The position numbers and the translations under genes are program-made. Of a stretch of DNA of 64,000 bases, positions 11,845-62,496 are shown one piece after another; the first letter of the stretch is position 1; each line of letters starts with the position of its first letter. Under the pieces are notes generated by a model. The model saw nothing but the letters and a program-made list of their open reading frames with translations. It did no database searches and was not told where the DNA came from. The DNA comes from Candidatus Omnitrophota bacterium (lineage in GTDB: Bacteria > Omnitrophota > Gorgyraeia > Zapsychrales > Fredricksoniimonadaceae). Where the stretch lies: the NCBI GenBank assembly GCA_044225175.1, contig JBGAJA010000003.1, positions 197,428 to 261,427 on the forward strand. The letters run 5' to 3'.

Positions 11845-11847
11845 TCT

Positions 11848-12381: not shown

Positions 12382-12410
12382 CCTGCAATTATTAGGCCAA
12401 GGAGACTATT

Positions 12411-13025
12411 ATGCGACTTACGGCTCTGTTTTTTTTAAGTTTGGTATTAATGACAACTTTTACGCATGCTCAGGAGGTTAAAATGAATCAAGAACAATTA
12501 GAAAAAGCAACTTTTGCAGGAGGATGTTTTTGGTGTATGCAGCCATTTTTTGATCGCATTAAAGGAGTTAAATACACCCAGGTGGGATATACAGGTGGAC
12601 AAACTAAAAATCCAACCTATGAAGAGGTGTCTATGGGAGAGACAGGTCATGCGGAAGCCATCGAAATCACATACGATCCTAAGGAAGCTACGTATGAACA
12701 ATTATTGAACGTCTATTGGCATAATATTGACCCAACTGTTGAAAATGCACAGTTTGTAGATCATGGGACACAATACCGAAGTGCTATTTTTTATCATGGA
12801 CAAGAGCAAAAGCACAAAGCTGAACAATCTAAGAAACAATTGGCAGCTTCTGGCAAGTTCGATAAGCCTATTATGACTGAAATCGTAGCTGCAGATACTT
12901 TTTATCCAGCCGAAGAGTATCATCAACAATACTACAAAAAAAGTCCTGTTCGATATCAAATGTATAGTGCAGGTTCCGGACGGCATGAATTTTTAGAGAA
13001 AGTATGGGGGAAAGACCAGCATTAA
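12411..13025 (+). CDS. msrA: Peptide-methionine (S)-S-oxide reductase MsrA, with signal peptide (periplasmic)
   Basis: GCFWC active-site motif and the conserved YHQQY region. N-terminal signal-like leader. Confidence 0.85.
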   Translation: MRLTALFFLSLVLMTTFTHAQEVKMNQEQLEKATFAGGCFWCMQPFFDRIKGVKYTQVGYTGGQTKNPTYEEVSMGETGHAEAIEITYDPKEATYEQLLNVYWHNIDPTVENAQFVDHGTQYRSAIFYHGQEQKHKAEQSKKQLAASGKFDKPIMTEIVAADTFYPAEEYHQQYYKKSPVRYQMYSAGSGRHEFLEKVWGKDQH

Positions 13026-13061
13026 TTGATCTCTTTCATTGATAATGGGTTAAGACATAGT

Positions 13062-13106
13062 AAACCCCTTACAATTTAATAAATTGTGAGGGGTTTAATG
13101 TTTTTA
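13062..13106 (+). terminator. Rho-independent terminator after msrA
   Basis: 16 bp stem (aaaccccttacaattt / aaattgtgaggggttt, one G·U wobble), 3 nt loop, then a T5 run. Confidence 0.6.
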
Positions 13107-13145
13107 AGGGTAAAAATAGCTCTTTAAAATATTTCATTTACCAGT

Positions 13146-13165
13146 TGCGAATATATAAATTCGCA
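13146..13165 (+). promoter_or_regulatory. Inverted repeat TGCGAAT-atataa-ATTCGCA in the promoter region of the pilus/secretin operon
   Basis: Perfect 7 bp arms, ~55 bp upstream of the secretin start and overlapping the likely -35/-10 region. Could also arise by chance in AT-rich DNA. Confidence 0.3.
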
Positions 13166-13219
13166 CATAATATAAAAACACATTATTAGAAAAATAACAT
13201 TTAATTTTGGAGGAATTCT

Positions 13220-14866
13220 TTGAAACGACCATTGAGGATGTTGTGTGCTTGTTTGATGGTCCTTGCTTTGTTCCCGCAGCAATCTTTGCATGCCTTAGAA
13301 AATCCTTTGGCTGACACTCAGAGAATTTCCATCGATTATAAAAATGCCGATCTCACAGATGTTATTAAAGCCATTTCCTATTCCTATAATCTTAATATCG
13401 TTGTTCAAAAAGATGTTTCCGGTAAAGTTTCTGCTCAATTAAAAGACATTACTGTCGACGAAGCCTTACATGCTATCCTTTCTGTTAATAATTATTCCTA
13501 TATTCGAAAAGGGAGTGTCATTTATATTTTAGATAAGAATGATGTAACCAGTATTACGGAATCTTTGCCTTTACATTTTTTGACTCTTAAAGCAGCCAAG
13601 AATTTGTTAAGTGGGGCATTGCCTAAATTTAATGGTGTCATTCAGGGAAGTGAGGATTCTAATAATCTTGTAGTTACGGCTAATCCTGCTGATTTAGAGA
13701 GTGTGAAAGAATGTCTTAAAGGCATAGATGTGCCGCCTATTCAAGTTCTTATTGAAGCGCAAATTATTGATATTAATAAATCAGACATTCAGAAATTGGA
13801 TAGTGCTGTGGGGCTTATATATTCGGCTTCTCAAACAGGAGGACAATTCGTTAAATATACTCCAACGGTAGGGCCTGCAGAATCTGGTGCTGCTGTACCA
13901 TTCAAAGATAACGTTACAGACGACCAAAGCGCTTTTACAATCTCTAATAATTCAGACAAACTTTTTTCACAAGTTTCACTTAATGCATTGGTCAATAATC
14001 ATAAAGCCCGGGTTATAGCATCACCATCCATTGCAACCCTCAATGGACATGAGGCTAATATTCTCATTGGTGAAAAATATCCATATATCAACTCTACAAC
14101 TGCGGCAGGGGGAACTGGCGGGGGAGTGGTTAATCAGACGACCACTTCTTATATTGACATTGGAACAAAACTTAGAGTTACCCCCAGGGTTTCTGTAGAT
14201 GGTTGGATTACCATGAAAATTCAACCTGAAGTTTCCACATTCTTAGGTCTTGTTAATGGAAATCCTAACATTGCTACACGTTCTGCAGAAACAGAAGTAA
14301 GGGTTAAGGATAATCAAACAATTATCATCGGTGGTTTAAAAGGTACGAGTAATATTCGTGATAAAAATGGCACGCCTTTTTTGAAGGATATACCTATTTT
14401 AGGAGCTCTTTTTTCAAGTAACGATAAAACAATTGTTGATGGAGAACTAACAGTTTTAATTACTCCTCATGTTATACCCATGCCTAAAACAGGAAATGTA
14501 GCAACTCCAGATAATTCATATGCTTCTACTCAGAATCGTAAAGATAATGAAATGATTCAGAATATCTTAAATTATGCCGAGACATTAGATGCAGAAAGAA
14601 CCAAAGATCCTGCAAAGAATCTTTATCTTAGCTCAGAACAGGTTAAATCTTACCGTATGGTCTTGCAGCAATTTCCTGACTCGGGTAGAAGTGATTTCTG
14701 TTTGTATAGAATAGCTTTAATTTATGCCAAAGAATTTGGTAAATGCGATGCTTCAAAGGAAGCTTTAGATGAATTAAAAGAATTAGATTCTGATAGTCCA
14801 TATGTCCCCGTCACAGAAGCCTTAGTTGATGCATGTAATGCAGTGAATAGAAGTCCAAAGAAATAA
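13220..14866 (+). CDS. Secretin (PilQ/GspD family) with an unusual ~140 aa C-terminal TPR-like extension
   Basis: TTG start with a GGAGG RBS. Signal peptide, N0/N1-like domains and a secretin domain (VIASPSIATLNGHEANILIGE...PFLKDIPILGALF...LTVLITPHVI). The extra C-terminal tail is helical and TPR-like. Confidence 0.8.
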   Translation: MKRPLRMLCACLMVLALFPQQSLHALENPLADTQRISIDYKNADLTDVIKAISYSYNLNIVVQKDVSGKVSAQLKDITVDEALHAILSVNNYSYIRKGSVIYILDKNDVTSITESLPLHFLTLKAAKNLLSGALPKFNGVIQGSEDSNNLVVTANPADLESVKECLKGIDVPPIQVLIEAQIIDINKSDIQKLDSAVGLIYSASQTGGQFVKYTPTVGPAESGAAVPFKDNVTDDQSAFTISNNSDKLFSQVSLNALVNNHKARVIASPSIATLNGHEANILIGEKYPYINSTTAAGGTGGGVVNQTTTSYIDIGTKLRVTPRVSVDGWITMKIQPEVSTFLGLVNGNPNIATRSAETEVRVKDNQTIIIGGLKGTSNIRDKNGTPFLKDIPILGALFSSNDKTIVDGELTVLITPHVIPMPKTGNVATPDNSYASTQNRKDNEMIQNILNYAETLDAERTKDPAKNLYLSSEQVKSYRMVLQQFPDSGRSDFCLYRIALIYAKEFGKCDASKEALDELKELDSDSPYVPVTEALVDACNAVNRSPKK

Positions 14867-14891
14867 ATTTATTATCTCTAGAAAGAAGTAT

Positions 14892-15281
14892 ATGGCAGAT
14901 GAATTAAAGAAAAAAATCTTAATTGTGGATGATGATCCGATGATAGTTGCTTTGATGGTAAAAACTCTTCAAGCTATGGGATTTGATGTTTTAAAAGGCT
15001 CTAATGGTCAGGAAGCTTTAACCATTGTTAAAGAAACCAGGCCAGATTTAATTATTCTTGATCAAATGATGCCTAAAATTGACGGGATTAAGACTTGTGC
15101 TTTATTAAAAGCTGATCGAAGATTTTTAAATATCCCTATCATTATGTTTACAGCTTCCGCAGAAGAAGCTGATAGAACTCTCAGTAAACAAATGGGAGCT
15201 GATGATTACTGTAATAAACCGTTAAATGTAGCAGAATTAAAACAGAAGATTGAATATTTGTTGTCTCAATCTAAAAACTAA
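14892..15281 (+). CDS. CheY-like response regulator receiver, single domain (PilH/PilG-like)
   Basis: ILIVDDDP...D(54)...K motifs of the REC domain; 129 aa. Confidence 0.85.
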   Translation: MADELKKKILIVDDDPMIVALMVKTLQAMGFDVLKGSNGQEALTIVKETRPDLIILDQMMPKIDGIKTCALLKADRRFLNIPIIMFTASAEEADRTLSKQMGADDYCNKPLNVAELKQKIEYLLSQSKN

Positions 15282-15287
15282 AACTTT

Positions 15288-16904
15288 ATGAGTACGCATA
15301 TAAAAAGATCCATGGGGGAGTTGTTTTTAGAAAAGGGATTAATATCCTCTTCTCAATGGGAGGAAGTACGTGCCGAACAGCAAAAAACTGGGGAATCTAT
15401 TTTTAGAATCATACCTAGGCTTGGTTTTATTACTCAAGAGAATATGGTTGAATTTATCGTTGAAAATAGTGGCGTCGTCCGCATAGATTTGAATCATCAT
15501 ATTATTAATCCAGCAATTATAGAATTAGTTCCTGAAGAAATTGCCCATAAACATTTGGTGATTCCTGTTTTAAAAATAGGCAATACGCTGACATGTGCAA
15601 TGGTGGATGTTTTTAATATTTATGTTCAGGATGAATTGGCTGCTAAAACAGGGCTTACAATCGATCCTGCTATTGCGACGGAGAATGAAATTAAATTAGC
15701 CATTGATGAATTTTATACAGTCAAAGGGGATGTGGATGATGTCATCAAGACATTAGATGACAATAAAACCACACAAAAAGATTCTGAAGAAGTAGATATT
15801 GTCCGTCTTGCTGATATGGGTCAAGATGCCCCCGTTGTTAAATTTGTTAATTTAATGATTGCACAGGCTGTTGGTGAAGGAGCTTCTGATATTCATATTG
15901 AGCCCGAAGAGAATACTTTGGCTATTAGGACTCGTGTCGATGGGATTTTAAGAAAACAGCCGGCTCCACCAAAACAGTTTCAAGCAGCCATTATTTCACG
16001 TATTAAGATTTTAGCTAAATTAGATATTGCAGAGACGCGTAAACCACAAGATGGTCGTATCCAATTAAAATTGGATAATAAGCGTATTGATATTCGTGTT
16101 TCCTGCTTACCGACAGTTTATGGTGAGAATATCGTCATGCGTCTTTTAGACACAAGTAATATTTTAATTGGTTTAGAAGAAATAGGTTTTGAAAAAGAGT
16201 TATTAGAAAAATTTAAAGGTCTTCTGCATAGACCCAACGGCATTCTTCTTGTTACTGGTCCTACAGGAAGTGGAAAAACAACAACACTGTACTCTTCGTT
16301 GAGTTTGATCAATGATCAAAGTAAGTCTATTGTCACAATTGAAGATCCTGTGGAATATCGTTTACCTGGAATTCGTCAGACACAGGTCAATACAAAAGTT
16401 GATTTAACTTTTGCGGCAGGCCTTCGATCTATTTTGCGTCAAGACCCTAATGTAATCATGGTTGGGGAAATTCGTGACGTAGAAACAGCCCAAATTGCAA
16501 TACAGGCAGCCTTAACAGGGCATCTTGTACTAGCTACATTACACACTAATAATGCTGCGGGCGCTATTACACGTTTGTTAGATATTGGAGTAGAACCATT
16601 CTTATTGTCCTCATCTATAGTTGGGGTATTGGCTCAACGTCTTGTGAGGTTAAAATGTAAGCACTGTAATGGTAAGGGTTGCAAAAGCTGCGTTCAGGGA
16701 TATAAGGGACGAACAAGTATTTTTGAATTGCTGGTTTTTAACGAAAAGATACGTGAATTAGTTTTGCGTAAAGCTTCAGCTGATGAGATACATCGAGTTG
16801 CAGTATCAACGGGCATGCAAAGTTTACGTGATGATGGGATGGCAAAAGTATCTCAGGGATTAACCACACAAGAAGAAGTGTTTAGAGTTACTCAACAAGA
16901 ATAA
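15288..16904 (+). CDS. Type IV pilus / type II secretion assembly ATPase (PilB/GspE family)
   Basis: N-terminal GSPII_E domain, Walker A GPTGSGKTT, Asp box, His box and a C-terminal tetracysteine CKHCNGKGCKSC zinc motif. Confidence 0.9.
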   Translation: MSTHIKRSMGELFLEKGLISSSQWEEVRAEQQKTGESIFRIIPRLGFITQENMVEFIVENSGVVRIDLNHHIINPAIIELVPEEIAHKHLVIPVLKIGNTLTCAMVDVFNIYVQDELAAKTGLTIDPAIATENEIKLAIDEFYTVKGDVDDVIKTLDDNKTTQKDSEEVDIVRLADMGQDAPVVKFVNLMIAQAVGEGASDIHIEPEENTLAIRTRVDGILRKQPAPPKQFQAAIISRIKILAKLDIAETRKPQDGRIQLKLDNKRIDIRVSCLPTVYGENIVMRLLDTSNILIGLEEIGFEKELLEKFKGLLHRPNGILLVTGPTGSGKTTTLYSSLSLINDQSKSIVTIEDPVEYRLPGIRQTQVNTKVDLTFAAGLRSILRQDPNVIMVGEIRDVETAQIAIQAALTGHLVLATLHTNNAAGAITRLLDIGVEPFLLSSSIVGVLAQRLVRLKCKHCNGKGCKSCVQGYKGRTSIFELLVFNEKIRELVLRKASADEIHRVAVSTGMQSLRDDGMAKVSQGLTTQEEVFRVTQQE

Positions 16905-16915
16905 AAAGGTTTTAA

Positions 16916-18196
16916 ATGAGCAAGTTTTCTTATAAAGCTAGAAATAATGAAGGACAGCTAGTCACAGGCCAGCTGGAGGCAGATTCTCAGCAAGAGATTT
17001 TGCAACAGCTGGGTAAAATGCAATATACTCCCGTGACTATTGCTCCTCTTGCTGAAAAGAAAATAGTTGTAAAACCCACAGAGAAAAATGTTTCTCCTAA
17101 ATCAAAAGGTTTTTGGGATTTATCTTTTAGCTCTTTATCTACACCAGGAAAAGTAAAAGTTAAAGATGTTATGGTCTTTTGTTCCAATTTATCTAGCATG
17201 TCTTCAGCAGGAGTGCCTTTATTAGGAGCTTTAAATACAATTGCTGAACAGTTTCAGAATCCAGCTATGACCAATACTTTGCGTAGGGTTGCGCAATTGG
17301 TTTCTCAAGGTTCTTCTTTTTCTGATGCTTTGGCGGCTTTTCCAAGAGTTTTTTCACCTTTTTTTGTCAGCATGGTGAAAGTAGGGGAAATGTCAGGTAC
17401 TCTCGATAGTGGTTTGAAAGCACTAGCTATTTATTTGGAGAAGCAGGAACGTTTAAGGCAAACAGTTCGAGGGATATTAATTTATCCATCCATCTTAATG
17501 ATTGTTGGTACTGCTGTAGTAACTTTGATTTTAGTTTTTTTGATGCCAAAGTTTGTTGCTATTTTTACAAAAGCAAATGTACCATTGCCAATTCCTACAA
17601 AAATTTTGTATGGTTTAAGCCTTTTCATTCGACAATACTGGATGTGGATTATAGGAATATTGCTGAGCATTACTGGTGCTATTGTTTTTTCTTTTCAGAA
17701 ACAACAAGGAAGATACTTCTGGCAAAGACTGTTTATTAATATGCCTGTGGTTGGAGATCTTATTAAGAAAACATTGTGTGCCCGTTTTTGTAGAACATTA
17801 GGTATTATGCTTGAATCAGGTGTTTCTTTATTAGTTGCCCTGAAAATGGTTAAGCAAACACTCGACAATGTGGTCTTCGCAGAGATTTTAGAAGAGGTTT
17901 ATGAAAGTGCTGAAAAAGGTGAAGGTATTCATAAACCATTGCTGTTAAGAAAAGAGATTCCAAAAGATGTGAGTTATATGATATCCGTAGGTGAGCAAAG
18001 TGGTAATATTGGTTCGATGCTCAATAAAGTGGCAGATTTCTATGAAACTAAGATTGAGTTTGAGGTCAAGGATGCCGTCACTTTAATTGAGCCGACGTTT
18101 ATAGTGATTTTGGGGGGCGTTGTAGGTGTGATCATGGCATCTATGATTTTGCCTTTATTTGATATGATTAAAACCCTAGAAGTGATGCATAAATAA
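16916..18196 (+). CDS. Platform protein (PilC/GspF family)
   Basis: Two GspF repeats and three TM helices. Confidence 0.85.
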   Translation: MSKFSYKARNNEGQLVTGQLEADSQQEILQQLGKMQYTPVTIAPLAEKKIVVKPTEKNVSPKSKGFWDLSFSSLSTPGKVKVKDVMVFCSNLSSMSSAGVPLLGALNTIAEQFQNPAMTNTLRRVAQLVSQGSSFSDALAAFPRVFSPFFVSMVKVGEMSGTLDSGLKALAIYLEKQERLRQTVRGILIYPSILMIVGTAVVTLILVFLMPKFVAIFTKANVPLPIPTKILYGLSLFIRQYWMWIIGILLSITGAIVFSFQKQQGRYFWQRLFINMPVVGDLIKKTLCARFCRTLGIMLESGVSLLVALKMVKQTLDNVVFAEILEEVYESAEKGEGIHKPLLLRKEIPKDVSYMISVGEQSGNIGSMLNKVADFYETKIEFEVKDAVTLIEPTFIVILGGVVGVIMASMILPLFDMIKTLEVMHK

Positions 18197-18236
18197 AAAT
18201 TAAAAATAAACAAAAAAATAAACTAAGGAGAATAAA

Positions 18237-18680
18237 ATGAAAAAAGGTTTCACGATTCTAGAATTGCTGGTTGTCATATCGGTTTTAGTTATTCTTATTG
18301 GTATTGCTATACCTAGATTTAAGGGTATGCAAGATGCAGCAAAAGTAGCTCAAGCAAAAGGTGAATTGCAAACCATGCAGGCAGCAATTGAGTCTTATTA
18401 CATGAACCAAACAACAAAAGCTTATCCTGCTAGTAATGCCACCGTTGGAGCGAGTGTTTTATCAACTCAATCCCCACAAATTATTTCTAGCACGCCTCCA
18501 TATGATCCATTTGGATCAACTAGCACAACAGAGTATATTTACACTAAATCAGCAAATGGTAATCATTATGTCATTTATTCTGTTGGAGCTGCAGGGAGTG
18601 GTTCAGCGAGTATTGTTAACGGAGGAACAGTCACTATCAGCAATTCTGCACTTTGTGTAACAAATGGAAGTGGTTGTTAA
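18237..18680 (+). CDS. Type IV major pilin, copy 1 (class III leader MKKG|FTILELL, C-terminal disulfide loop CVTNGSGC)
   Basis: Prepilin cleavage/methylation motif G|FTxLE, hydrophobic alpha1 helix and two Cys residues near the C-terminus. RBS AAGGAGAATAAAATG. Confidence 0.85.
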   Translation: MKKGFTILELLVVISVLVILIGIAIPRFKGMQDAAKVAQAKGELQTMQAAIESYYMNQTTKAYPASNATVGASVLSTQSPQIISSTPPYDPFGSTSTTEYIYTKSANGNHYVIYSVGAAGSGSASIVNGGTVTISNSALCVTNGSGC

Positions 18681-18694
18681 TCAAGGAGAATAAA

Positions 18695-19138
18695 ATGAAA
18701 AAAGGTTTCACAATTTTAGAATTGTTGGTTGTTATATCGGTTTTAGTTATTCTAATTGGTATTGCCATTCCTAGATTTAAAGGTATGCAAGATGCTGCAA
18801 AAGTAGCTCAAGCCAAAGGTGAATTACAAACCATGCAGGCAGCAATTGAGTCTTATTACATGAACCAAACAACAAAAGCTTATCCTGCTAGTAACGCAAC
18901 TGTTGGAGCGAGCGTTTTATCGACTCAGGCACCACAAATTATACCAAGTACACCTCCGTATGATCCTTTTGGTGCGACTAGTTCAACAGAGTATGTTTAT
19001 ACCAAAGGTGCGGATGGTAGCTACTATGTTATTTATTCTGTTGGAGCTACGGGAAGTGGTTCTGCGAGTATTGTCAACGGAGGAACAGTTACAGTCACTG
19101 GTGGGGCACTTTGCGTTACAAATGGAAGCGGTTGTTAA
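18695..19138 (+). CDS. Type IV major pilin, copy 2 (tandem duplicate of copy 1; the ORF tracker's upstream start at 18653 is rejected)
   Basis: Same RBS and same first ~78 aa as copy 1. Divergent C-terminal globular region. Confidence 0.85.
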   Translation: MKKGFTILELLVVISVLVILIGIAIPRFKGMQDAAKVAQAKGELQTMQAAIESYYMNQTTKAYPASNATVGASVLSTQAPQIIPSTPPYDPFGATSSTEYVYTKGADGSYYVIYSVGATGSGSASIVNGGTVTVTGGALCVTNGSGC

Positions 19139-19186
19139 GTAATATTTTATTAAAAGTAATTCAGTATGGGTGAAAAGGAGACAGAT

Positions 19187-19630
19187 ATGAAAAAAGGTTT
19201 TACGATTTTGGAATTATTAATTGTTATTTCTGTATTAGTTATTTTAATTGGAATCGCTATCCCTCGTTTCAAAGGTATGCAAGATGCGGCTAAAATAGCA
19301 CAAGCTAAAGCGGAATTGTTAACCATGCAGTCTGCGGTGGAGTCATATTATACTAATCAGTCTGTTAAAACATATCCTCCAACAAATGCTACAGTCGGGC
19401 AAAGCTATTTAGGGGTCACAACGCCTCAAATTTTACCTAATTCTCCACCATATGATCCATTTGGGGCAACTAATACAACAGAATATAATTATCTTTTGTC
19501 TGCAAATGGGGCCCATTATGTTATTTATTCTATTGGTGCTAATGCTTCAGGCACAGTAAGTATTGTTAATGGAGGAACAGTTACTATTAGTAGTAATGCA
19601 TTATGCGTAACTAATGGTAGCGGATGTTAA
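19187..19630 (+). CDS. Type IV major pilin, copy 3 (more divergent paralog)
   Basis: MKKGFTILELLIVISVLV..., ~70% identity to copies 1 and 2, C-terminal CVTNGSGC. Start chosen at MKKGF with an AAAAGGAG RBS. Confidence 0.8.
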   Translation: MKKGFTILELLIVISVLVILIGIAIPRFKGMQDAAKIAQAKAELLTMQSAVESYYTNQSVKTYPPTNATVGQSYLGVTTPQILPNSPPYDPFGATNTTEYNYLLSANGAHYVIYSIGANASGTVSIVNGGTVTISSNALCVTNGSGC

Positions 19631-19662
19631 TGCTGAGAGTTGTTTCCTGCGTATGATAATGT

Positions 19663-20955
19663 ATGAAATCTAAATTAGGTTTTACTCTTCTTGAAGTCCT
19701 CATTACTTCTTTAATGATTGGGCTTTTGACTGCCGCAGTGACCATGGTTTATTTAACATCTTATCGTGCTGTGAGTGGTGGTCAGGACAGCGCTGGTGTC
19801 ACAATCCCTCTTTCTCAAGGTTTTGTTCGAATGGTGGATGATCTGCATAATGCCAGAGGAATTACTATCTGTAATTCTACAACAATAAGATTTGAAGATA
19901 ATACGGGCAGTATAGGGACTAATTATACTTATACTTTATATACATCTGGGGGTGTAACAAAACTATTAAAAGCATTAGCAACTGATCCTGCTGGTTCAGG
20001 ACAGTTGATTATGTCTAATATTGTAAGCGCTTCATCAACTCTTTGTAGTGCAAGTAGCGGAATCTTCACTATTGATCTTACTGCAACCCAAAACTCTATT
20101 TCTAAACATTTTAAAACGAGTGTTAAATTAAATGTTTCTCCATCGCTGCCTATTGCATGGTGGAAATTTGATGAAAACACAGGGACTACGGCCTATGATT
20201 CCAGCGGGAACGGCTATACAGGAACTCTCAATGGCGGATCTCCAGGATGGGTAGCTTCTAGCACTAACATGGGATATGCCTTAACTCTTTCTGCAGTTAA
20301 TACGGATTATATGGAATTCACTCCTGCCATCACGCCTGCCGCAAACAGCTCTTACTCGATCAGTCTTTGGGCTTATTATTCGCTGGCTGGAGGAGTAAGC
20401 ATGCCAATATTTACTTCCACTGCCCAAACTGGATTATATTTAGATAGTACTAATAAAAGACTAAAATTGGTAGGAACAGACGCTTCAATTTACGCAAGAA
20501 ATTCAACGTATACACCTTTTGCTGCCAGCGCATATTTTCATGTTGTAATGGTTGTTACTGATTATGCTGCAACAAGCACAGTTTGGTTCTATGTGAATGG
20601 GTTATTGACCTATTCAACAAATATCACGGATAATACGGGTCTTATTAGTTACAGTAGAATAGGATATGATGGGGTCAATAAAATGAACGGAAGAATGGAT
20701 GATGTGCGTTATTACAATAGAGCACTATCTCCTGAAGAAATCAGACAAATGTATGGTCAATATGGAAAAGTTTGTGATTCGAATTACAATCTTTGTACTG
20801 CAACCTGTAAGGATTTATATTCTGCGGCGAGTACTAGTAGTTGTGGAGGATGTACCACGGCGTGTATAGGGGGCCAATCTTGCACAAAAGGGAAATGTTG
20901 CACTACAGGGTGGACTAATTGCAGCGGTACTTGTACCAATGGTGCTTGCCCATAA
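19663..20955 (+). CDS. Minor pilin/pseudopilin with LamG (concanavalin A-like) domain and a C-terminal Cys-rich tail
   Basis: Prepilin leader MKSKLG|FTLLEV. The LamG signature is WWKFDENTGTTAYDSSGNGYTGTL...MDDVRYYNRALSPEEI. The last ~60 aa contain 14 Cys (CDSNYNLCTATCKD...CTNGACP). Confidence 0.7.
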   Translation: MKSKLGFTLLEVLITSLMIGLLTAAVTMVYLTSYRAVSGGQDSAGVTIPLSQGFVRMVDDLHNARGITICNSTTIRFEDNTGSIGTNYTYTLYTSGGVTKLLKALATDPAGSGQLIMSNIVSASSTLCSASSGIFTIDLTATQNSISKHFKTSVKLNVSPSLPIAWWKFDENTGTTAYDSSGNGYTGTLNGGSPGWVASSTNMGYALTLSAVNTDYMEFTPAITPAANSSYSISLWAYYSLAGGVSMPIFTSTAQTGLYLDSTNKRLKLVGTDASIYARNSTYTPFAASAYFHVVMVVTDYAATSTVWFYVNGLLTYSTNITDNTGLISYSRIGYDGVNKMNGRMDDVRYYNRALSPEEIRQMYGQYGKVCDSNYNLCTATCKDLYSAASTSSCGGCTTACIGGQSCTKGKCCTTGWTNCSGTCTNGACP

Positions 20956-20966
20956 TCATACTTAAA

Positions 20967-22136
20967 ATGAAAAACAAATTTATTCATCAAAGTCAAGGCA
21001 TGCTTTTATTAGTTATTGTGTTTATGTTTGCCTTAATGGTTTTGGCTGTTGCTTTTATGGGATCAACCATATACAACGCTAGGGTATCTTCGAGTCAAGT
21101 AGACAAGACACAAGCCTACTACATGGCAATAGCTGGAATCAACAAGGCGGAATATTATCTGGCTAATACTGCTCCTGATGCTTCGACAGATGGCTCTTAT
21201 CGAATAGGAACAGCTGCTACATCTGCAAGCTGTCCTAGTGGTTCACCAACCTGTTGTCCTGATGGGTTAAATGAAACAAGTATTGGAGGAACTTCCGGAA
21301 GCTATACGATTTGTATTGAAACTGTTACTCCACCTACCCTTGGTCAACCAACTATTAAAATCACCTCCACTGGAACCTTCAACGAAATAAGTAAAACTGT
21401 TCAGACGATTGTCAGATATAGATCAACGCTTGAGGCATGGTATAAGGGAGATGAAGGAAGCGGTTCAATCCTGCTTGATTCTGGTTCTAAAGGTATTTAT
21501 ATGATTTTCCCAGCCGCAACAAAGCCTAAATGGACAGATTCTGGGAAAGTTAATGGTGGTTCTGTTCTTTATGCGGGAGGAGCGCAATCTTCAAATACCA
21601 ACATGCTAGCTACAATTGCTACTACATTGGGAGGCGGAATCTATCCTGCCGTGTCAGCATTTAGTATTTCTGCATGGGTTTATCCTACGGCGACGACCAC
21701 TGCAAAACAATGTGTGCTGTGTGATATTTGGGGTAGTAAAGGTTTTTATTTGACGGTAGCAGGGGGATCTTTTTATGTTAATTTTACCGATGTGGCTGGA
21801 ACAAGTTCGAGTGCTGCCTCGGGTGCTATGAGTACAGGAGCCTGGGCCCATATTGCAGCTTCATATGATGGAACGACTCTGACTTTATATAAGAATGGAA
21901 CTTCTGTCACAACGGCTACGACCAATGGATTCACATTTCTTAATGGATCTGGTACCGATGTGGCGGGGAATCATTTATATGCTTATTTAGATGAGGTTCG
22001 TTTCTATTCTCGAGCGTTATCATCGACGGAGATTGATTTGCTTTATACAGCAGGTACAGTGGAGGCCACTAATGCTACTGCTGTAACAGCATATGGTTAC
22101 ATTGTTCCAATTCCAGGATCTTTTACAGAGCTATGA
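20967..22136 (+). CDS. PilX-like minor pilin with LamG domain (start revised to MKNKF)
   Basis: The PilX_N-like hydrophobic N-terminus (QSQGMLLLVIVFMFALMVLAVAFMG) lacks Glu5. LamG-type segment LDEVRFYSRALSSTEIDLLY. The ORF tracker's 20919 start overlaps the upstream gene. Confidence 0.6.
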   Translation: MKNKFIHQSQGMLLLVIVFMFALMVLAVAFMGSTIYNARVSSSQVDKTQAYYMAIAGINKAEYYLANTAPDASTDGSYRIGTAATSASCPSGSPTCCPDGLNETSIGGTSGSYTICIETVTPPTLGQPTIKITSTGTFNEISKTVQTIVRYRSTLEAWYKGDEGSGSILLDSGSKGIYMIFPAATKPKWTDSGKVNGGSVLYAGGAQSSNTNMLATIATTLGGGIYPAVSAFSISAWVYPTATTTAKQCVLCDIWGSKGFYLTVAGGSFYVNFTDVAGTSSSAASGAMSTGAWAHIAASYDGTTLTLYKNGTSVTTATTNGFTFLNGSGTDVAGNHLYAYLDEVRFYSRALSSTEIDLLYTAGTVEATNATAVTAYGYIVPIPGSFTEL

Positions 22137-22555
22137 GAATGAACAAACAATCTATACGTTACAAACTTAATAAAAGAGGTTTTACTTTATTGGAGATAAT
22201 CATATCCTCAGTTTTAATTACTGTTGGAATAGTTTCAGTTGTAAGGGTCATATCTTCAGGACTTGTATTTAACAGCTCAATGGATGGAGAGTCTGTTGCT
22301 TTGGCTTTAGCCCAGCAGAAAATGGAAGTTCTTAGAAACACAGCGTATACAAGCATTTCTGATTCTTCGACTCTTTGTTCAGCGACGTATACAACTTGGG
22401 CTGCCGCGGATATTACGCCCTATTATCAATGTTGGTCTGTTACAGATAACACACATTACAAAACAGTGGTTGTTAAAATCGCTTGGGATTTTAAAGGAGC
22501 GCAAAGAACAGTCAGTTTAACAACTTATATCGCTAATCTTTATCCTAGGATGTAA
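22133..22555 (+). CDS. PilV-like minor pilin
   Basis: Prepilin leader NKRG|FTLLEIIISSVL; ~140 aa. Confidence 0.6.
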   Translation: MRMNKQSIRYKLNKRGFTLLEIIISSVLITVGIVSVVRVISSGLVFNSSMDGESVALALAQQKMEVLRNTAYTSISDSSTLCSATYTTWAAADITPYYQCWSVTDNTHYKTVVVKIAWDFKGAQRTVSLTTYIANLYPRM

Positions 22556-22673
22556 ATGCTCATAATTAAAGGGTTTACATATTTTCTGTGACAATGAAAA
22601 ATCAATTCAATTAATAGAATGATTTTTAATATCTGTTAATATATTGATAATATTATCATTCATTTGAAATCTT

Positions 22674-24383
22674 ATGGCGCAAGCTAACTCCACATATAAA
22701 AATTCTTTTATACTTTCCCTCTTCCATCAGATCAAGTTATTGTCTAATCAAAGATCTGTCATTGGTGTCGATGTCGATCTAAATTTCGTAAATATTGTTC
22801 AAGTACAGAGCGTTTTGAATGATCAAAAGATTATTCGTGCTGTTTCTGAGAAGGTTGAGCTTATCAAGGATGGACGAAGAGAAACTGCCATTACTATTGC
22901 ACTTCAAAAAGCATTAAACAAATTTGATATCAAAAGTTCAGATATTATTTATACATTAAGTGATCAAAAGGCTATTGTGGATCACATTACAATGCCTTTA
23001 ATGCCGACTGAAGAACTCGGTGAGGCTGTTAAGTTGCAAATAAGTAATACTCAACATTATTCTATAGAAAATCCCATTTTTGACTTTCAAATTTTGGGAC
23101 GCAGTCTTGAAAAGGGGATTGAGAAATTTAATTTGATAGTGGCGGCCATTGCTAAATCTTCTATGGATATCTATACGAGTCGATTCAAGGCCTCTCCAAA
23201 CGATGCTTTAAGTGGCATAAAGAAGTCATTGTTTCTTGAAAATTTGATGGATGTCAATATTACTAGAGCGATTCCGCTTTCAATAGCCTTTGAGAACATT
23301 ATTAAGGAATCGGAGAAATCTGAGACATTGGCTGTTCTTTATATTGGTGCATCAACTTCAGAAATTAATATCTATAAAGAAGGAAAGTTAGATTTCACAA
23401 GAAAGATCACTCTTTTAGCTGGAGATTTAACTAAAGCTTTAACAAGTGCTATTTTTACGGATAGTGGAAAGATAGAACTAACTGCAGCTGAAGCCCAAAT
23501 GCTTCAGAAAGAATTTGGTATTCCATCTTCTGGAGATAATTTTCTAATCCGAGGTAAAATCACAGCAAATCAGGCTCTTGCTTTACTACGTCCTAAGCTA
23601 GAACAGTTGAATCGAGAGATTCATCGTTGTTTTGATTATTATTATGATAAAACTCAATCTAATAAGATTGAGAAAATTATTTTATTTGGAGATGCTGCGC
23701 TTTTAAAGGGATTAGGTAATTCTTTAAATATAGAATTTGGTATTCCCGTAACGATAGGTAATCCTTTGGGAGGAAAAGTTCTTCATTTTAATGGCGAATC
23801 TGAATTCACTGCGGACGATATTCAAAGATTAGTTGCTGCAATCGGAGCAAGTCTTTCAGACTCAAAAGGGATTAATCTTTTACCAACGGCTTTTAGAAGT
23901 TTCCAAGTCAAATTTCTTCAAAGAGTATTGGTTGTTCTAGCTGCATGTGCAATGATTGGACTGTTTATTTTCGTATATCTGGGACTTTTGGTTCAACAAA
24001 CCATTACAAAGAAACAATTAGAAAATACAAAAAAAGAATACCTTGCTATTTTGCCAAAGGTTAATCAAATCAGAACTACCCTCTTAGCAAAAGATTATGT
24101 TGATCATCGTATGAATATCGCAAAATTAATGTTGCAGTTAAGTCACCTGCCTAAGAAGGTATTTATAACTGAATTGAAATTAGAACAGGATACTTTGACA
24201 TTATCCGGATTGGTTGCTCTTAAGCCTCAAGAAGCTAAGGCGAAGCTTAGTCGTCTTGAGGAAGAATTGGCTACAAATTATTTATATAACGTTCGAGAAA
24301 ATTCTTTAAAGCAGTCTGTGATAGATGCTTCTTTGACAGAGTTTGTGATTCAAGCCCAATTAAGAAAGGAGGAGGCAAAATAA
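22674..24383 (+). CDS. PilM-like actin-fold ATPase fused to a PilN-like TM/coiled-coil region
   Basis: The actin-like PilM signature (AVLYIGASTSEINIYKEGKL.FTRKITLLAGDLTKAL) is followed at ~aa 420 by a TM helix and a periplasmic coiled coil, as in PilN. Confidence 0.6.
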   Translation: MAQANSTYKNSFILSLFHQIKLLSNQRSVIGVDVDLNFVNIVQVQSVLNDQKIIRAVSEKVELIKDGRRETAITIALQKALNKFDIKSSDIIYTLSDQKAIVDHITMPLMPTEELGEAVKLQISNTQHYSIENPIFDFQILGRSLEKGIEKFNLIVAAIAKSSMDIYTSRFKASPNDALSGIKKSLFLENLMDVNITRAIPLSIAFENIIKESEKSETLAVLYIGASTSEINIYKEGKLDFTRKITLLAGDLTKALTSAIFTDSGKIELTAAEAQMLQKEFGIPSSGDNFLIRGKITANQALALLRPKLEQLNREIHRCFDYYYDKTQSNKIEKIILFGDAALLKGLGNSLNIEFGIPVTIGNPLGGKVLHFNGESEFTADDIQRLVAAIGASLSDSKGINLLPTAFRSFQVKFLQRVLVVLAACAMIGLFIFVYLGLLVQQTITKKQLENTKKEYLAILPKVNQIRTTLLAKDYVDHRMNIAKLMLQLSHLPKKVFITELKLEQDTLTLSGLVALKPQEAKAKLSRLEEELATNYLYNVRENSLKQSVIDASLTEFVIQAQLRKEEAK

Positions 24384-24910
24384 TGAATCTTCCTACTTTT
24401 AAACAAGAGGAATTCTTACCTGTCGCTGTGGTTGCATTCTTTCTATTTATTATTTTTGTAGGTCTGTGTGTATGTAAATCAGTTGCTGGAAATATTCATC
24501 AGAATAAAGAGCAGCGTCAGGCATATATACAAGAGACTCTTAATTTAAAGAAATTGATATCTGCTGCTAGTCAAAAGAAGTTTATCAAATTAACTTCTCC
24601 AAATAAATTAGATGAGTTTAAAGATAAAATTTCTAAGATAGCTGCTGATAATAATGTACGTTTAATTTTTAACAAATCGAATGATGAAGCGTCCTCAGAT
24701 ACTAATTCGTTTAACCGTATACCTTTTGAAGTTCAAACTTCTGGAAAGTTTCAAGATTTTGGTAAATTTTTGACGCAACTTAAGACAATGCCAGAAGGGC
24801 TGGTTGATGTAGAAAGAGTAGTTATGTCAACTGAAGGTCAGGCAAGTTCAGCAAATATCGTTGGAATTATGACATTAGGGATCTATTTGGCTAAAGATAA
24901 TGAAATTTAA
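24383..24910 (+). CDS. PilO-like inner-membrane pilus alignment protein
   Basis: Single N-terminal TM helix plus a ~140 aa periplasmic domain. Position between PilMN and the PilP-like gene. Start overlaps the upstream stop. Confidence 0.4.
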   Translation: MNLPTFKQEEFLPVAVVAFFLFIIFVGLCVCKSVAGNIHQNKEQRQAYIQETLNLKKLISAASQKKFIKLTSPNKLDEFKDKISKIAADNNVRLIFNKSNDEASSDTNSFNRIPFEVQTSGKFQDFGKFLTQLKTMPEGLVDVERVVMSTEGQASSANIVGIMTLGIYLAKDNEI

Positions 24911-25445
24911 TCAAACTACTTTTATTGGTATCGTTGTTGTCCTTTTTATAATAGCTATTATTTTCTTGTTTGGTTTATCCTCTTCCAAGAAGAAATTCGA
25001 GGTTTTGCCAAAGTTAAATAATAAACAAATAATGGATTTAATTGAGCAGAAAGATGATGTGCAATTAGTTTCTTCTCCAGCAAAATGGGGAAAAAGAAAT
25101 CCTTTTGTTTCACCCGTCTCTAATGCAACATCAGACCATACGATTGTGCTTGCAGGAGTGTTCTGGGGAAGCAGTAAACCAAGTGCTATTTTTAATACAT
25201 TTACTCAAGTGGATGGACAAAATATTCCGCAAAGTGTTGTAGCTGGGGTGGGCGAAAAGGTTAATGATCTAACAGTTAAAGAAATTAAAAGTGATGGAGT
25301 TGTCTTAAGTGATTCTCAAGGACAGGCAATGGTTTTCTTTATGAAAGAAGCTTTTAAAGTTCCAGATCCTTTAGCTGAAGAAGATGACGAAGATGATCCG
25401 CAGAGTACCGGTAATATGCAGCAGACGTCAATTCCTACCCAATAG
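24900..25445 (+). CDS. PilP-like protein (N-terminal anchor, NPF motif, C-terminal beta domain)
   Basis: KRNPF motif, then a VVLSD...VNDLTVKEIKSDGVVL beta-rich domain typical of PilP/GspC HR domains. Acidic tail. Confidence 0.4.
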   Translation: MKFNQTTFIGIVVVLFIIAIIFLFGLSSSKKKFEVLPKLNNKQIMDLIEQKDDVQLVSSPAKWGKRNPFVSPVSNATSDHTIVLAGVFWGSSKPSAIFNTFTQVDGQNIPQSVVAGVGEKVNDLTVKEIKSDGVVLSDSQGQAMVFFMKEAFKVPDPLAEEDDEDDPQSTGNMQQTSIPTQ

Positions 25446-25479
25446 AGAAAATCTATTTAGAAAACAGATTGGATAACTA

Positions 25480-25917
25480 ATGAAGAATATTTTTATTTTA
25501 ATTTTGTTATTAGGTTTTATTCTTCCTTCCATGACCTTGGCTATGAGCCTTTCGAAAGAAAAGGTGGATCGACTTAAATATATCAAGCAAAGTTTAATGG
25601 ATATTGATGGTAAAACGCTTCAACAGACCATCAATGAAGTAGAAAAGAGCAAACATCCGGAAATACAATTAAGCATTAAAGAAGCCATGGCTAAAACATA
25701 TATTGAGATTGTACAGGAACAAAATGTTCAAGGATTGTCTAAGAAAAAGTGGCTTTACAGTATGGTTGCTCTTAATATGGCTTACTTACAATTTGGTGGG
25801 GATAAAGATTCAGCAGGAAATGCAAGCAACCTAAATAAATTGATCCGCAGTAAATTAAGGTCTCATCTTCCTTCCGGTATCATGCAACAACCAGGATTTA
25901 GAACTTCTTTAGAATAA
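25480..25917 (+). CDS. Hypothetical secreted protein
   Basis: Signal peptide MKNIFILILLLGFILPSMTLA. No family recognised. Confidence 0.4.
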   Translation: MKNIFILILLLGFILPSMTLAMSLSKEKVDRLKYIKQSLMDIDGKTLQQTINEVEKSKHPEIQLSIKEAMAKTYIEIVQEQNVQGLSKKKWLYSMVALNMAYLQFGGDKDSAGNASNLNKLIRSKLRSHLPSGIMQQPGFRTSLE

Positions 25918-25929
25918 AATCTTTTAAGA

Positions 25930-27405
25930 TTAGCGGGATATTTTCAATCCTTCGATAAAGCTTTCTACAATATCCTGGTCGATTTCATCTTTCATCGAAC
26001 GAAGAATTTGAATGGCTTCGTTTGTAGATTTTTTCGGGCGGTAGGAGCGTTCTGTGGTGAGAGCATCATAGATGTCAGCCACGGTCAGAATACGGACTAA
26101 GGGGGAGATTTCAGAACCTTTTAAACCATCAGGATAGCCAGATCCATCTAGTTTCTCGTGATGATGCCTAATAATATCACAAAGGGGGGATAAAGATCGA
26201 ACGGGTTTGATAATGCTTTCTCCTATTTCAGCGTGACGACGCATAATGACCCATTCTTCTTCATTGAGTCTTTTGTCTTTTAGTAGAATTTCATCAGGAA
26301 TTCCTATTTTTCCTAAATCATGAAGGCGTGCCCCATCACGTAATATCTGTAAATCCTCGCCATCAATTCCAATTTGTTTAGCAATCAACATGACGTATTC
26401 AGATACGCGATCTAGGTGCCCTCTTGAATATTTATCTTTAGCATCAACAGCAAGTGCAAGGGCAGAGATAGTTTCAAAATAGGTTTTTTCAATGTCATTA
26501 TTGAGTTTTGAATTTTCAAGAGCGATTCCTGTTTGTGAGGCAAGATGAAAGACAAGATCAACATCATCTTGAGAAAATGTTGCATCTGAGGTTTCATCTT
26601 TACTTAAAGTTATAAGTCCTAGAATTTTCTCACGATAGAGTAATGGTACGCAGATTAAGTTTTCTCCAAAGAAATTAGCTAGTACAGGATTGTTTAAACT
26701 TTTCAGAAAGATTCCAGAGACTATGAAAGGCTTTTTTTCTTCTATCACTTTTGAAAATGGAGAGCCTTGGAAAAGTTGAATATGAATAGGATTGAGAATA
26801 TCATAACTGGCTCCGTATACACTATTAATGACTAGTTCTGTTTTACTGCTTTTGAGCAGCATTAAAGTTGAAACTTTACCATTTAGGGCATTAGTCATCG
26901 TTTCTAAAATCAGTTCAAGAAAGGTGTCAATTCTTTCCATATTGGAAATTCCTTGGCCTACTTTATCCATGACTGATTGCAGTGTTCTTTTTGCAGATTC
27001 CAAGCTTTGGATATTGTCTTCAAGCTTTTTCGTCACTGCAGAAAAGGAACGACTTAGGACGGCAATTTCATTCTCTCCTTGGTTCAATTGTTGAATCGTT
27101 TCGGGACTAAGGATTTTCTCTAAGATTTTACTGTTGTTTTCAGTAATATTAATGACTGTCTTTAATAATGTACGCATGGAGTTGTACCCAATAAGGACAC
27201 CCAAAGTCATGAAAATCATAGCTATTTGAAAATTACCCTCGCTTAATTCAATATGTCCAGATTTATTGTGTTGAAAATAGACATATGTAAGTAAACCCAT
27301 AGGGACAATGGAAGCTAAAAGAAAAAGAATGGTAAATTTACGAAGGATAGAGGCGTCTTCGAAAGAAGCGGCAAAGAAGAGTTTATTATTTTTTTTAGAA
27401 GTCAT
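25930..27405 (-). CDS. HD-GYP domain c-di-GMP phosphodiesterase with N-terminal 2-TM anchor and central GAF-like domain
   Basis: HD...HHHEKLDGSGYPDGL is the HD-GYP signature. N-terminal hydrophobic helices. Confidence 0.8.
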   Translation of the reverse strand: MTSKKNNKLFFAASFEDASILRKFTILFLLASIVPMGLLTYVYFQHNKSGHIELSEGNFQIAMIFMTLGVLIGYNSMRTLLKTVINITENNSKILEKILSPETIQQLNQGENEIAVLSRSFSAVTKKLEDNIQSLESAKRTLQSVMDKVGQGISNMERIDTFLELILETMTNALNGKVSTLMLLKSSKTELVINSVYGASYDILNPIHIQLFQGSPFSKVIEEKKPFIVSGIFLKSLNNPVLANFFGENLICVPLLYREKILGLITLSKDETSDATFSQDDVDLVFHLASQTGIALENSKLNNDIEKTYFETISALALAVDAKDKYSRGHLDRVSEYVMLIAKQIGIDGEDLQILRDGARLHDLGKIGIPDEILLKDKRLNEEEWVIMRRHAEIGESIIKPVRSLSPLCDIIRHHHEKLDGSGYPDGLKGSEISPLVRILTVADIYDALTTERSYRPKKSTNEAIQILRSMKDEIDQDIVESFIEGLKISR

Positions 27406-27650
27406 ATAGTCTTTTCAAAACACAATTACTAAATATAACTGTAATCTTATGCAATGAACAGAAAATTCTCTTTTCAATTTAAGATATATCATATTATTTT
27501 AAGTTAATCCAACTTGAAGAAATAATTTTCTGGGTTATTTTAAGTTGTATATCTCGCTGTCTTGCTTTAAAATATCGAGGTTTTAGATTCATTCCATAGA
27601 GAAATTTCACGGAAATTGACTATCACATTAAAATATTTTAGGAGAGATCT

Positions 27651-37044: not shown

Positions 37045-37065
37045 GTTTTTAAGGAAGTCCAATTT

Positions 37066-62493: not shown

Positions 62494-62496
62494 TCT

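Follow-up and report, generated by a model that had tools for sequence, protein, structure and literature searches.

Type IVa pili (T4aP) and type II secretion systems (T2SS) are the described machines with which we compare a gene locus found in a 64,000-nucleotide stretch of DNA (hereafter the window) from a Candidatus Omnitrophota bacterium (GenBank assembly GCA_044225175.1, contig JBGAJA010000003.1, positions 197,428-261,427, forward strand). In the canonical T2SS operon (gsp/pul) the genes stand in the order D-E-F-G-minor pilins-L-M, and a C-terminal disulfide is a typical trait of T4a pilins. The genes of T4aP are usually scattered, and those of T2SS form a single locus with the pilins in its middle; the prepilin peptidase PilD is frequently encoded away from the pilus locus (PMC6668835). 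The T2SS has lost PilT and has no PilC/PilY1, and its PulL protein is the equivalent of a PilM and PilN fusion (PMC10191384). Genuine type IV pilins can resemble pseudopilins (PMC5131608). The pilus of Streptococcus sanguinis is a heteropolymer of two tandem major pilins (PMC10628169), and its tip complex contains a small I-like pilin and two modular pilins, one of them with a proven glycan-binding ConA-like lectin (PMC9934059). T4aP clusters were reported in all Omnitrophota classes and were proposed to serve host attachment (PMC10066038).

The genes at 13220-25917 of the window are best explained, from their content and order, as a single operon whose products form a type IV filament machine that spans the envelope and descends from T4aP. 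We classify this machine as a mosaic with several T2SS-like traits, and we predict with moderate confidence that it builds an adhesive filament with lectins at its tip and several pilins in its backbone, which would resemble above all the pili of S. sanguinis. From their substitution record, the three tandem major pilins are read as stable, long-maintained functional paralogues under purifying selection and not as switching cassettes.

The locus and its core machinery

The locus consists of 14 tightly packed genes on the plus strand, with a largest intergenic gap of 118 nt. The single strand, the short gaps, an upstream hairpin and the lack of internal terminator enrichment all support one operon. 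The original prediction described a 12-kb pilus block at 13220-25445: the genes were found there, on the plus strand, and the end was moved to about 25917 because a conserved open reading frame (ORF) of 145 aa counts as part of the block. The strong hairpin (13061-13097; 17-bp stem, TAAACCCCTTACAATTT/AAATTGTGAGGGGTTTA) is located between msrA and the secretin gene and is probably a terminator that fixes the 5' limit of the pilus operon. Promoter and terminator scans of the window gave counts that match the shuffled expectation, and Rfam and tRNA scans of the window gave no matches. To call the locus complete, as had been done, is too strong because PilD is not in the window. The reported absence of a prepilin peptidase and of PilT was confirmed: neither a Peptidase_A24 (PilD) match nor a second PilT/PilB-like ATPase was found among the ORFs of at least 150 aa in the 64-kb window, and tblastn with the locus proteins detected no additional pilin or ATPase copy in the 64 kb.

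The first gene (13220..14866, plus strand) encodes a secretin of 548 aa when started at TTG 13220 (Pfam Secretin E = 1.2e-44, STN, GspD N0 and Secretin_N), or of 542 aa from the alternative ATG 13238 that a gene caller used on an identical contig. A signal peptide is followed by the STN/N0 domain, a single N1 domain (Secretin_N) and the core (residues 256-419), beyond which the C-terminus extends for about 125 aa. In NCBIfam the protein reached 205 bits with GspD (cutoff 351) and 194 bits with PilQ, both far under the cutoffs; the best PDB match was PilQ of Myxococcus xanthus (98 bits), with GspD at 94 bits. The C-terminal extension might, speculatively, be a fused pilotin-like element. One tetratricopeptide repeat (TPR)-like unit was seen in this tail (14477-14866, residues ~420-548; TPR_6 22.3 bits, below cutoff). 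In the related locus L082, a separate TPR protein of 635 aa is encoded directly upstream of the secretin.

The second gene (14892..15281, plus strand) encodes a stand-alone CheY-type receiver of 129 aa that matched only Pfam Response_reg (E = 6e-29). All five canonical CheY residues (D13/D14, D57, T87 and K109) were read from the translation, and the receiver is therefore probably phosphorylatable; no kinase gene was found within the locus. The receiver gene lies directly 5' of the ATPase gene in the related loci L082, L083 and L086, at 60-80% identity, and this arrangement recurs in many loci that are more distant.

The extension ATPase (15288..16904, plus strand; 538 aa; Pfam T2SSE 454 bits and MshEN) is of the PilB type, with an MshEN-type N-terminal domain, a Walker core and a compact CxxC-x4-CxxC zinc motif (CKHCNGKGCKSC). 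Its NCBIfam scores for PilB (584.7 bits, cutoff 675.65) and GspE (581.8 bits, cutoff 630) were both under the cutoffs. Against the PDB, M. xanthus PilB was aligned over residues 8-461 (488 bits), GspE over the core only (414 bits), and the N-terminal domain matched PilB, PilF and MshE (E = 1e-24 to 6e-12) and the XpsE N-terminal domain only at E = 0.11. The model of the MshE-type cyclic di-GMP (c-di-GMP) motif gave 30.3 bits (cutoff 38 bits), and in the alignment to M. xanthus PilB the window ATPase has Ser in place of both motif Arg residues and Phe in place of the second Gly. The MshEN motifs thus appear degenerate, and a c-di-GMP link via the HD-GYP gene next to the operon is possible. The inner-membrane platform of the PilC/GspF family (16916..18196, plus strand; 426 aa) contains two T2SSF repeats (Pfam E = 4e-60) and scored 343.7 bits with GspF (NCBIfam cutoff 424) and 302 and 291 bits with PilC, all under the cutoffs.

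Downstream of the pilin genes, the fused PilM-PilN and the PilO that had been predicted were both found by domain scans. The fusion (22674..24383, plus strand; 569 aa) matched Pfam PilM_2 (E = 1e-19) and, just below the cutoff, PilN (19.6 bits). In its layout, assigned from motifs and hydropathy, an actin-like PilM part occupies residues ~30-395 and a retained INLLP motif residues 400-404; a transmembrane helix (~418-440) then leads to a periplasmic domain that is PilN-like. The NCBIfam scores were 102.6 bits with pilM and 63 bits with the Amuc_1101 family of the Akkermansia Amuc_1098-1102 PilM-like cluster (of the Planctomycetes-Verrucomicrobia-Chlamydiae, or PVC, type), and the PDB search returned only PilM structures and no GspL. 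At E <= 1e-30 the fusion family has 128 representatives (50% clusters), mostly of 510-580 aa. Among the 150 best homologues, 134 were full length, with xNLLP at the junction in 109 of these 134. By motif and domain content, the window protein is PilM and PilN, each complete, joined by read-through.

The next gene, which follows PilMN in all relatives, encodes a PilO-like bitopic protein (24383..24910, plus strand; 175 aa; Pfam PilO 29.1 bits, cutoff 22). For the following gene (24900..25445, plus strand; 181 aa), which had been named PilP, the position and topology agree with that name: an N-terminal transmembrane anchor (no lipoprotein), a beta-rich HR-like domain and an acidic tail. No Pfam family was matched, and the similarity was to GspC HR domains and weak; a profile of five positional orthologues found only these (2lnv, E = 0.08; 3oss, E = 0.5), NCBIfam gave GspC_delta at E = 0.016 and the one database homologue, a distant one, is named PulC. 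The assignment as a PilP/GspC-HR-like protein is accordingly weak but consistent. The terminal ORF (25480..25917, plus strand; 145 aa, signal peptide) had no Pfam or NCBIfam match; ORFs in the same position are 56% (L083) and 52% (L086) identical to it, and the operon probably ends with it.

Major and minor pilins

The three major pilins, of 147 aa each, are encoded on the plus strand at 18237..18680 (pilin 1), 18695..19138 (pilin 2) and 19187..19630 (pilin 3). Pfam T2SSG was above threshold on all three (pilin 1, 30 bits against a cutoff of 21), and N_methyl was found with it on each of them. The corrected start codons (ATG 18237, 18695 and 19187) each stand 7-8 nt past an AAGGAGA Shine-Dalgarno sequence, so that pilin 2, a tandem paralogue, has one of its own. 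TTG 18653, where the mechanical ORF for pilin 2 begins, is probably not the real start; for pilin 3, an alternative upstream ATG (19166) would give 154 aa. Each copy has its own leader, MKKG/FTILE (the slash marks the cleavage site), with Glu+5.

The triplication is evident as a direct repeat in three copies with start-to-start distances of 458 and 492 nt, and the first distance agrees with the 458-bp tandem duplication that had been proposed for pilins 1 and 2. The proposed identity of these two over their first 78 residues was also borne out: 133 of 147 residues are identical (90%), and the 14 differences, mostly conservative, all fall at positions 79-137. Pilin 3 shares 76% and 73% identity with pilins 1 and 2, represents an older paralogue class and was grouped in a neighbour-joining tree with pilins of other organisms (P0009, P0014). 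All three copies keep the CVTNGSGC loop, each ending in C140-VTNGSG-C147; a C(V/I/A)TNGSGC end is conserved throughout the closer clade, and there only.

Pilin 1, for which the AlphaFold model is confident (predicted local distance difference test score, pLDDT, 90.7), has a globular domain of the GspG type. Foldseek matched the model best to PilE1 of S. sanguinis, to EpsG and to PilA4 of Thermus, each time weakly (best E = 0.018, none at E <= 0.001). When the globular part alone was searched against the PDB, GspG (2kep) was best (E = 0.017), followed by the unrelated neogenin (E = 0.11). The NCBIfam GspG model gave 58 bits for pilin 1 and 45 bits for pilin 3, the two copies scanned, against a cutoff of 88.85. 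The 276 pilin homologues that were matched are named GspG, PulG or prepilin-type protein, and come from Candidatus Omnitrophota where an organism is named. In the alignment to 2kep, 'YSLGADGKEG' of GspG stands opposite 'YSVGAAGSGS' of the window, and the Asp of GADG is replaced by Ala. This Asp is reported to be a Ca2+ ligand in GspG (Korotkov 2009).

The copies are old. Synonymous divergence (dS) is 0.62 between pilins 1 and 2 and about 1.8 between these and pilin 3 (ratio of nonsynonymous to synonymous divergence, dN/dS, ~0.1), and dN/dS among the copies is 0.09-0.22. Even the first 78 codons of pilins 1 and 2, identical in protein, contain 17 synonymous differences (dS 0.41); in their 3' half dS is 0.93 and dN/dS 0.13. 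A second population, represented by the metagenome GCA_020049755.1 (contigs L088 and L089), has the same three pilin genes in the same order. The old dS, the low dN/dS, the Shine-Dalgarno sequence and leader of each copy and this retention argue for long-maintained paralogues and against silent cassettes.

It had been proposed that the pilins serve antigenic diversification or recombination-driven switching, that is, antigenic or phase variation in which recombination swaps the exposed C-terminal half of the expressed pilin. The confinement of differences to the C-terminal half behind 78 identical residues fits this idea, as do the lower dS of the 5' half (0.41, compared with 0.93 in the 3' half) and the pilin tree, where tandem copies cluster by genome as they might under concerted evolution. 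Recombination-like signatures were also seen in the second population. Of 10 sites that discriminate the two copies, the 5' end of pilin 2 of that population is pilin 1-like at 7. Between the two populations, pilin 1 is just 80% identical in its 3' half, on a 1.2-kb, possibly chimeric metagenome contig (L088; proportion of synonymous differences, pS, 0.62), against a background identity of 96-98.6% (pS 0.04-0.13; pilin 3, 98.6%).

On the other hand, the protein encoded by this diverged pilin 1 allele is 97% identical, with 5 of 147 residues changed (proportion of nonsynonymous differences, pN, 0.05), and the protein surface is therefore conserved and not diversified. No diversifying selection was detected on the exposed region: in the variable half (codons 79-147) dN/dS is 0.13-0.22, which indicates purifying selection. 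There is no silent copy, because none of the three lacks a Shine-Dalgarno sequence, an ATG or a leader; 5'-truncated, promoterless donor copies of the Neisseria pilE/pilS type are absent, all three genes being full length. Around the pilins, only one imperfect pair of 15-nt inverted repeats and no invertible-element signature were found, Pfam scans gave no invertase genes, and tblastn found no extra pilin cassettes within the 64 kb. With ancient copies, a conserved gene order and no cassettes, programmed variation is most unlikely, and the proposal was not upheld. There is some evidence from the alignments that pilins 1 and 2 were touched by occasional gene conversion or allele import over evolutionary time, with no programmed variation.

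A conversion test that counted changes toward the other copy looked highly significant and was rejected: where pilin 1 of the second population matches window pilin 2, ordinary substitutions on the branch of window pilin 1 would leave just such sites, in the ancestral state. The counts are symmetric, at 19 and 27 for the two branches. Short-read assemblies break within the pilin repeat.

Three minor pilin genes follow. The first (19663..20955, plus strand; 430 aa; Pfam N_methyl and Laminin_G_3, E = 1e-14) encodes a modular protein with a class III signal peptide (MKSKLG/FTLLE, Glu+5), a pilin moiety, a LamG/ConA-like module (~160-370) and a Cys-rich tail (371-430). In its AlphaFold model only the LamG part has a pLDDT of 85-95. 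By Foldseek this part resembles AbnA domain 4 (TMt 0.75), BoNT Hc and NanA CBM40, which are carbohydrate- or receptor-binding jelly rolls. A full-length homologue (P0280) with LamG and Stig1 is named PilE. The second (20967..22136, plus strand; 389 aa; PilX_N and Laminin_G_3, E = 9e-22) is a modular PilX/GspK-like pilin whose hydrophobic N-terminus, without Glu+5, precedes a LamG/ConA-like module (~225-360); its NCBIfam match to the GspK N-terminus was weak. The two LamG modules are 30% identical to one another. The third (22133..22555, plus strand; 140 aa; KRG/FTLLE, Pfam N_methyl) is a small PilV/GspI-like pilin (NCBIfam PilV E = 4e-6, GspI E = 1.6e-3, both under the cutoffs) with orthologues of 123 aa in L083 (44%) and L086 (42%). 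The class III signal peptide of pilins was thus recognised by N_methyl on five locus proteins and by PilX_N on a sixth.

The LamG pilins are kept in L083 and L086, and one there adds Stig1 and Hint-like parts. The L083 orthologue of the 430-aa pilin (11273-13504) has 743 aa, with a Cys-rich Stig1 region and weak Hint/Vint-like matches; the adhesive module set of the predicted tip pilin therefore differs among relatives.

Between type IVa pili and type II secretion

The descent of the machine from T4aP is indicated by its PilB-type ATPase, including the N-terminal domain, by the PilM, PilN and PilO families and by a secretin closest to PilQ. A PilB-type ATPase and a PilC-type platform are present together, with scores under the equivalog cutoffs. 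The PilM/N/O/P subcomplex is also represented: PilM_2 and PilO are above their cutoffs, PilN is just below but has the INLLP motif and helix, and PilP is weak. As in the T4aP of M. xanthus and Pseudomonas, the core minor pilins are PilV- and PilX-like, and the major pilins have a short leader with Gly-1, Phe+1 and Glu+5 and a C-terminal Cys pair. The window locus differs from those systems in that PilM and PilN are fused, PilP is membrane-anchored and no lipoprotein, the secretin lacks AMIN domains, the pilin globular domain is GspG-like and the genes form one locus with the secretin first, in which PilT/PilU, PilY1, PilD and a TPR pilotin gene are absent.

Several of these traits weigh against the T4aP assignment. 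PilM and PilN are fused as in GspL; the single locus has its pilins in the middle and follows the order D-E-F-G...L-M; neither PilT nor PilY1 was found in the window locus or in any related locus examined, and no PilT adjoins the locus in L006, L009, L082, L083 or L086. In addition, the pilin globular domain aligned to GspG alone in the PDB, the platform scored higher with GspF than with PilC, the component in the PilP position is (weakly) GspC-like, and no component reached the NCBIfam equivalog cutoff of either system. The pilin moiety of the 430-aa LamG pilin was, like its Cys-rich tail, modelled with low confidence.

In a rival reading, the machine would function as a T2SS, or as a T2SS-like short pseudopilus: a GspG-like periplasmic piston that pushes folded exoproteins through the secretin, with the LamG pilins serving tip or cargo recognition instead of adhesion. 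The gene order D-(response regulator)-E-F-G-minor pilins-L-like-M-like matches that of gsp/pul. A single locus with central pilins is the T2SS pattern (PMC6668835), the fusion has the architecture of GspL, and T2SS is set apart from T4aP by having lost PilT and PilY1 (PMC10191384). T2SSG is above threshold on the three pilins, whose homologues carry the names GspG or PulG; the minor pilins resemble I, J and K of the T2SS; a membrane anchor is common to the HR-domain protein and GspC; and the four paralogous, putatively secreted proteins of 930-1100 aa in the window could be cargo. The T2SS-like order also answers the description of pilQ first and pilMN last as atypical, which did not hold: the order mirrors that of T2SS operons and is kept in L082, L083 and L086, and the fusion belongs to the large family described above.

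Set against secretion, however, the T2SS (Klebsiella Pul, Vibrio Eps) equivalogs GspD, GspE, GspF and GspG were not reached, no locus protein matched the T2SSL, T2SSM or GspL families, and GspL, GspM and GspC were not significant, whereas PilM_2 and PilO were and PilN was just under its cutoff. The ATPase N-terminal domain is of the PilB/MshE type and not of the GspE/XpsE type. The secretin has N0 and one further N domain, without N2/N3 and the S-domain, compared with N0-N3 in GspD. The GADG Asp is replaced by Ala, and all three pilins end in C-x6-C, with a C-terminal disulfide pair instead. There is no GspH-like gene, a receiver is inserted between D and E, and there are three major subunits. 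Lectin modules on two minor pilins and one to three maintained paralogues of the major pilin have counterparts in adhesive pili but are not known in T2SS (PMC9934059), and pseudopilin-like folds also occur in genuine type IV pili (PMC5131608). We regard secretion as a serious, though less probable, alternative to an adhesive filament. The original prediction had itself allowed that the major pilins might turn out to be T2SS pseudopilins; this is true of them in part, in that the globular domain aligns only with GspG and relatives are automatically annotated as GspG, while the ATPase, PilM, PilN and PilO are of the T4aP type.

A doubtful extension of the mosaic reading is that this locus family is an extant T4aP/T2SS intermediate, possibly a non-retractile, lectin-tipped, multi-pilin adhesive fibre in host-associated nanobacteria. 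This would be suggested by the T2SS order, the GspL-like fusion that keeps the PilN INLLP motif, the disulfide-held GspG-fold subunit without the GADG Asp, the PilB/MshE-type ATPase and the absence of PilT.

Predicted filament, relatives and neighbours

The layout that resembles S. sanguinis, the LamG jelly roll and the attachment context of the Omnitrophota lead us to favour a surface-exposed adhesive filament. As in S. sanguinis, at least two major pilin genes are in tandem, complete and highly similar, PilE1 is the top (weak) Foldseek match, and the three minor pilins include one small I-like and two modular proteins, for which binding is predicted. S. sanguinis differs in being monoderm, without a secretin, with PilT and with separate PilM, PilN and PilO, whereas the window system is diderm; the second module in S. 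sanguinis is vWA and not LamG, and there is no sequence relationship beyond the pilin fold.

In the proposed mechanism, six prepilins (three major, three minor) would be cleaved after Gly-1 by a peptidase encoded elsewhere, with the PilB-type ATPase and PilC/GspF platform as the polymerising machinery. An alignment complex of the fused PilM-PilN, PilO and the membrane-anchored PilP/GspC-like protein would be joined to the minimal N0-N1 secretin. The PilV/GspI-like pilin and the two LamG pilins (J-like and K-like) would prime assembly and end at the tip, where the lectin-type modules and the Cys-rich module may attach to particles or host cells through glycans or other ligands on their surfaces. 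Up to three GspG-fold pilins would make up the shaft, with a Cys140-Cys147 bridge in place of the GADG Asp of 2kep GspG. These pilins may co-assemble as a heteropolymer or serve alternatively; a multi-pilin shaft is supported by the Shine-Dalgarno sequence and leader of each copy, by dN/dS of 0.09-0.22, by retention in the second population and by pilin multiplicity in relatives. Judging from its conserved adjacency, the receiver upstream of the ATPase gene probably gates assembly, and the HD-GYP neighbour may contribute.

Type IV filaments are functionally versatile, and another role, such as DNA uptake or extracellular electron transfer, was considered. Conductive pilins were predicted in some Omnitrophota by Seymour et al. 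(PMC10066038), and in our search with the pilin profile a Geobacter pilin was the best match of the N-terminal helix (E = 1e-16). This match covers the generic N-terminal helix only (residues 2-64), however, and the window pilins, in contrast to the truncated one of Geobacter, have a full globular domain of 90 residues; neither ComEA nor ComEC nor signs of a DNA-binding pilin turned up in the window, and the lectin modules point to adhesion. Such a role is very unlikely.

Among the genomes of a one-genome-per-species collection, the best ATPase matches were in metagenome-assembled genomes (MAGs) of Candidatus Omnitrophota, at only ~54% identity. An order of response regulator, ATPase, platform, pilin, PilV, minor pilins, PilMN, PilO and PilP-like protein is common to the T4aP-like clusters of many Omnitrophota MAGs. 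The distant loci read response regulator, ATPase, platform, one pilin, PilV-like, minor pilin, PilX-like, PilM-N fusion, PilO, PilP-like, with the secretin last where it was found (L007). The secretin-first order is shared by the window, L082, L083 and L086, whose ATPases are 70% (L082), 80% (L083) and 71% (L086) identical to that of the window. Beyond this order, both LamG pilins, the 145-aa ORF and the flanking genes (Trx/DsbD-MsrB-MsrA on the 5' side, HD-GYP on the 3' side) recur in L083 and L086, and L082, although secretin-first, has no minor pilins in the locus. The number of major pilins is one in L086, two in tandem in L083 with an orphan on L084, three in L082 and two on the contig of P0018/P0020. 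The window differs from the Omnitrophota clusters in having three tandem pilins against one or two in tandem and in the position of PilV after the LamG genes, and LamG modules and the C-x6-C pilin end are limited to the closer clade. Many Omnitrophota T4aP loci adjoin F-type ATPase genes, and none is adjacent in the window. The cluster type is thus widespread among relatives, and in the triplication a recurrent theme varies in copy number at the lineage level, with no new mechanism.

Other observations were made in these genomes. In the genome of L083, the orphan third pilin (P0014) is located in a polysaccharide cluster (L084; GCA_964583975.1, CAZOXU010000001.1, 1-20441) that has a Wzy_C-domain protein, of a family which includes pilin O-oligosaccharyltransferases; this context hints that the Ser/Thr-rich pilins of the window family may be glycosylated. 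A second minor-pilin-like gene set (N_methyl/DUF4900) lies 9 kb off in L084, beside response regulator and GGDEF-EAL genes. In seven loci from Omnitrophota and other MAGs (L039, L056, L058, L061, L063, L067 and L070), two tandem PilB paralogues and a platform were found with PilT-like matches upstream; at least some Omnitrophota therefore have, in addition to the type described here, a further type IV pilus system associated with PilT. In L006 (18340-19455) and L009 (18433-19590), the PilP-like gene is followed by a lipoprotein-like ORF of 371-385 aa, which had no detectable similarity to the window secretin.

At its 3' end, the operon is faced by a convergent gene on the minus strand (25930..27405) for a GAF and HD-GYP protein, a putative c-di-GMP phosphodiesterase that has both the HD and the GYP motif (Pfam HD_5, HD and GAF; 121 bits with the NCBIfam c-di-GMP phosphodiesterase family, under the cutoff). 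Its position and orientation are kept in L083 and L086, and it is a possible regulator and no structural part of the machine. The minus-strand GAF and HD-GYP gene is followed by MscS in the 3' flank (25930-28169), an arrangement in which MscS is kept in L086 only. The 5' flank (10783 to 13025) encodes DsbD/thioredoxin, MsrB and MsrA, which are periplasmic redox repair functions, and is kept in L083 and L086; the proximity of redox genes to disulfide-containing pilins may be coincidence.

Elsewhere in the window, four paralogous signal-peptide proteins of 930-1100 aa are encoded on the plus strand (432-3230, 36976-40290, 40875-43976 and 44630-47467), three of them in tandem. Their N-terminal ~340-400 aa are conserved (56-70% identity; starting LPIPGTM.N.SP.FEP.LIKGLT.H.DNPF), as are the C-terminal ~80-120 aa, and the middle is divergent. 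None had a Pfam match, and a PDB sequence search with one of them found nothing; from their signal peptides they may be surface or secreted proteins. A highly hydrophobic multi-pass membrane protein of 434 aa (59105-60409, minus strand; no Pfam match) adjoins sugar-modifying genes at 60926-63234 (GFO/IDH/MocA oxidoreductase, hexapeptide transferase and GT2).

The Omnitrophota are uncultured, mostly ultra-small and suspected to live attached to cells, with pili as leading candidates for attachment (PMC10066038). For these bacteria, the locus offers a testable parts list in a single operon, with three conserved shaft pilins and two lectin-module tip pilins. Its mosaic of T4aP and T2SS traits is a useful data point on the divergence of both machine types and, if the intermediate reading were true, the locus family would be a living model of how secretion pseudopili arose from pili.

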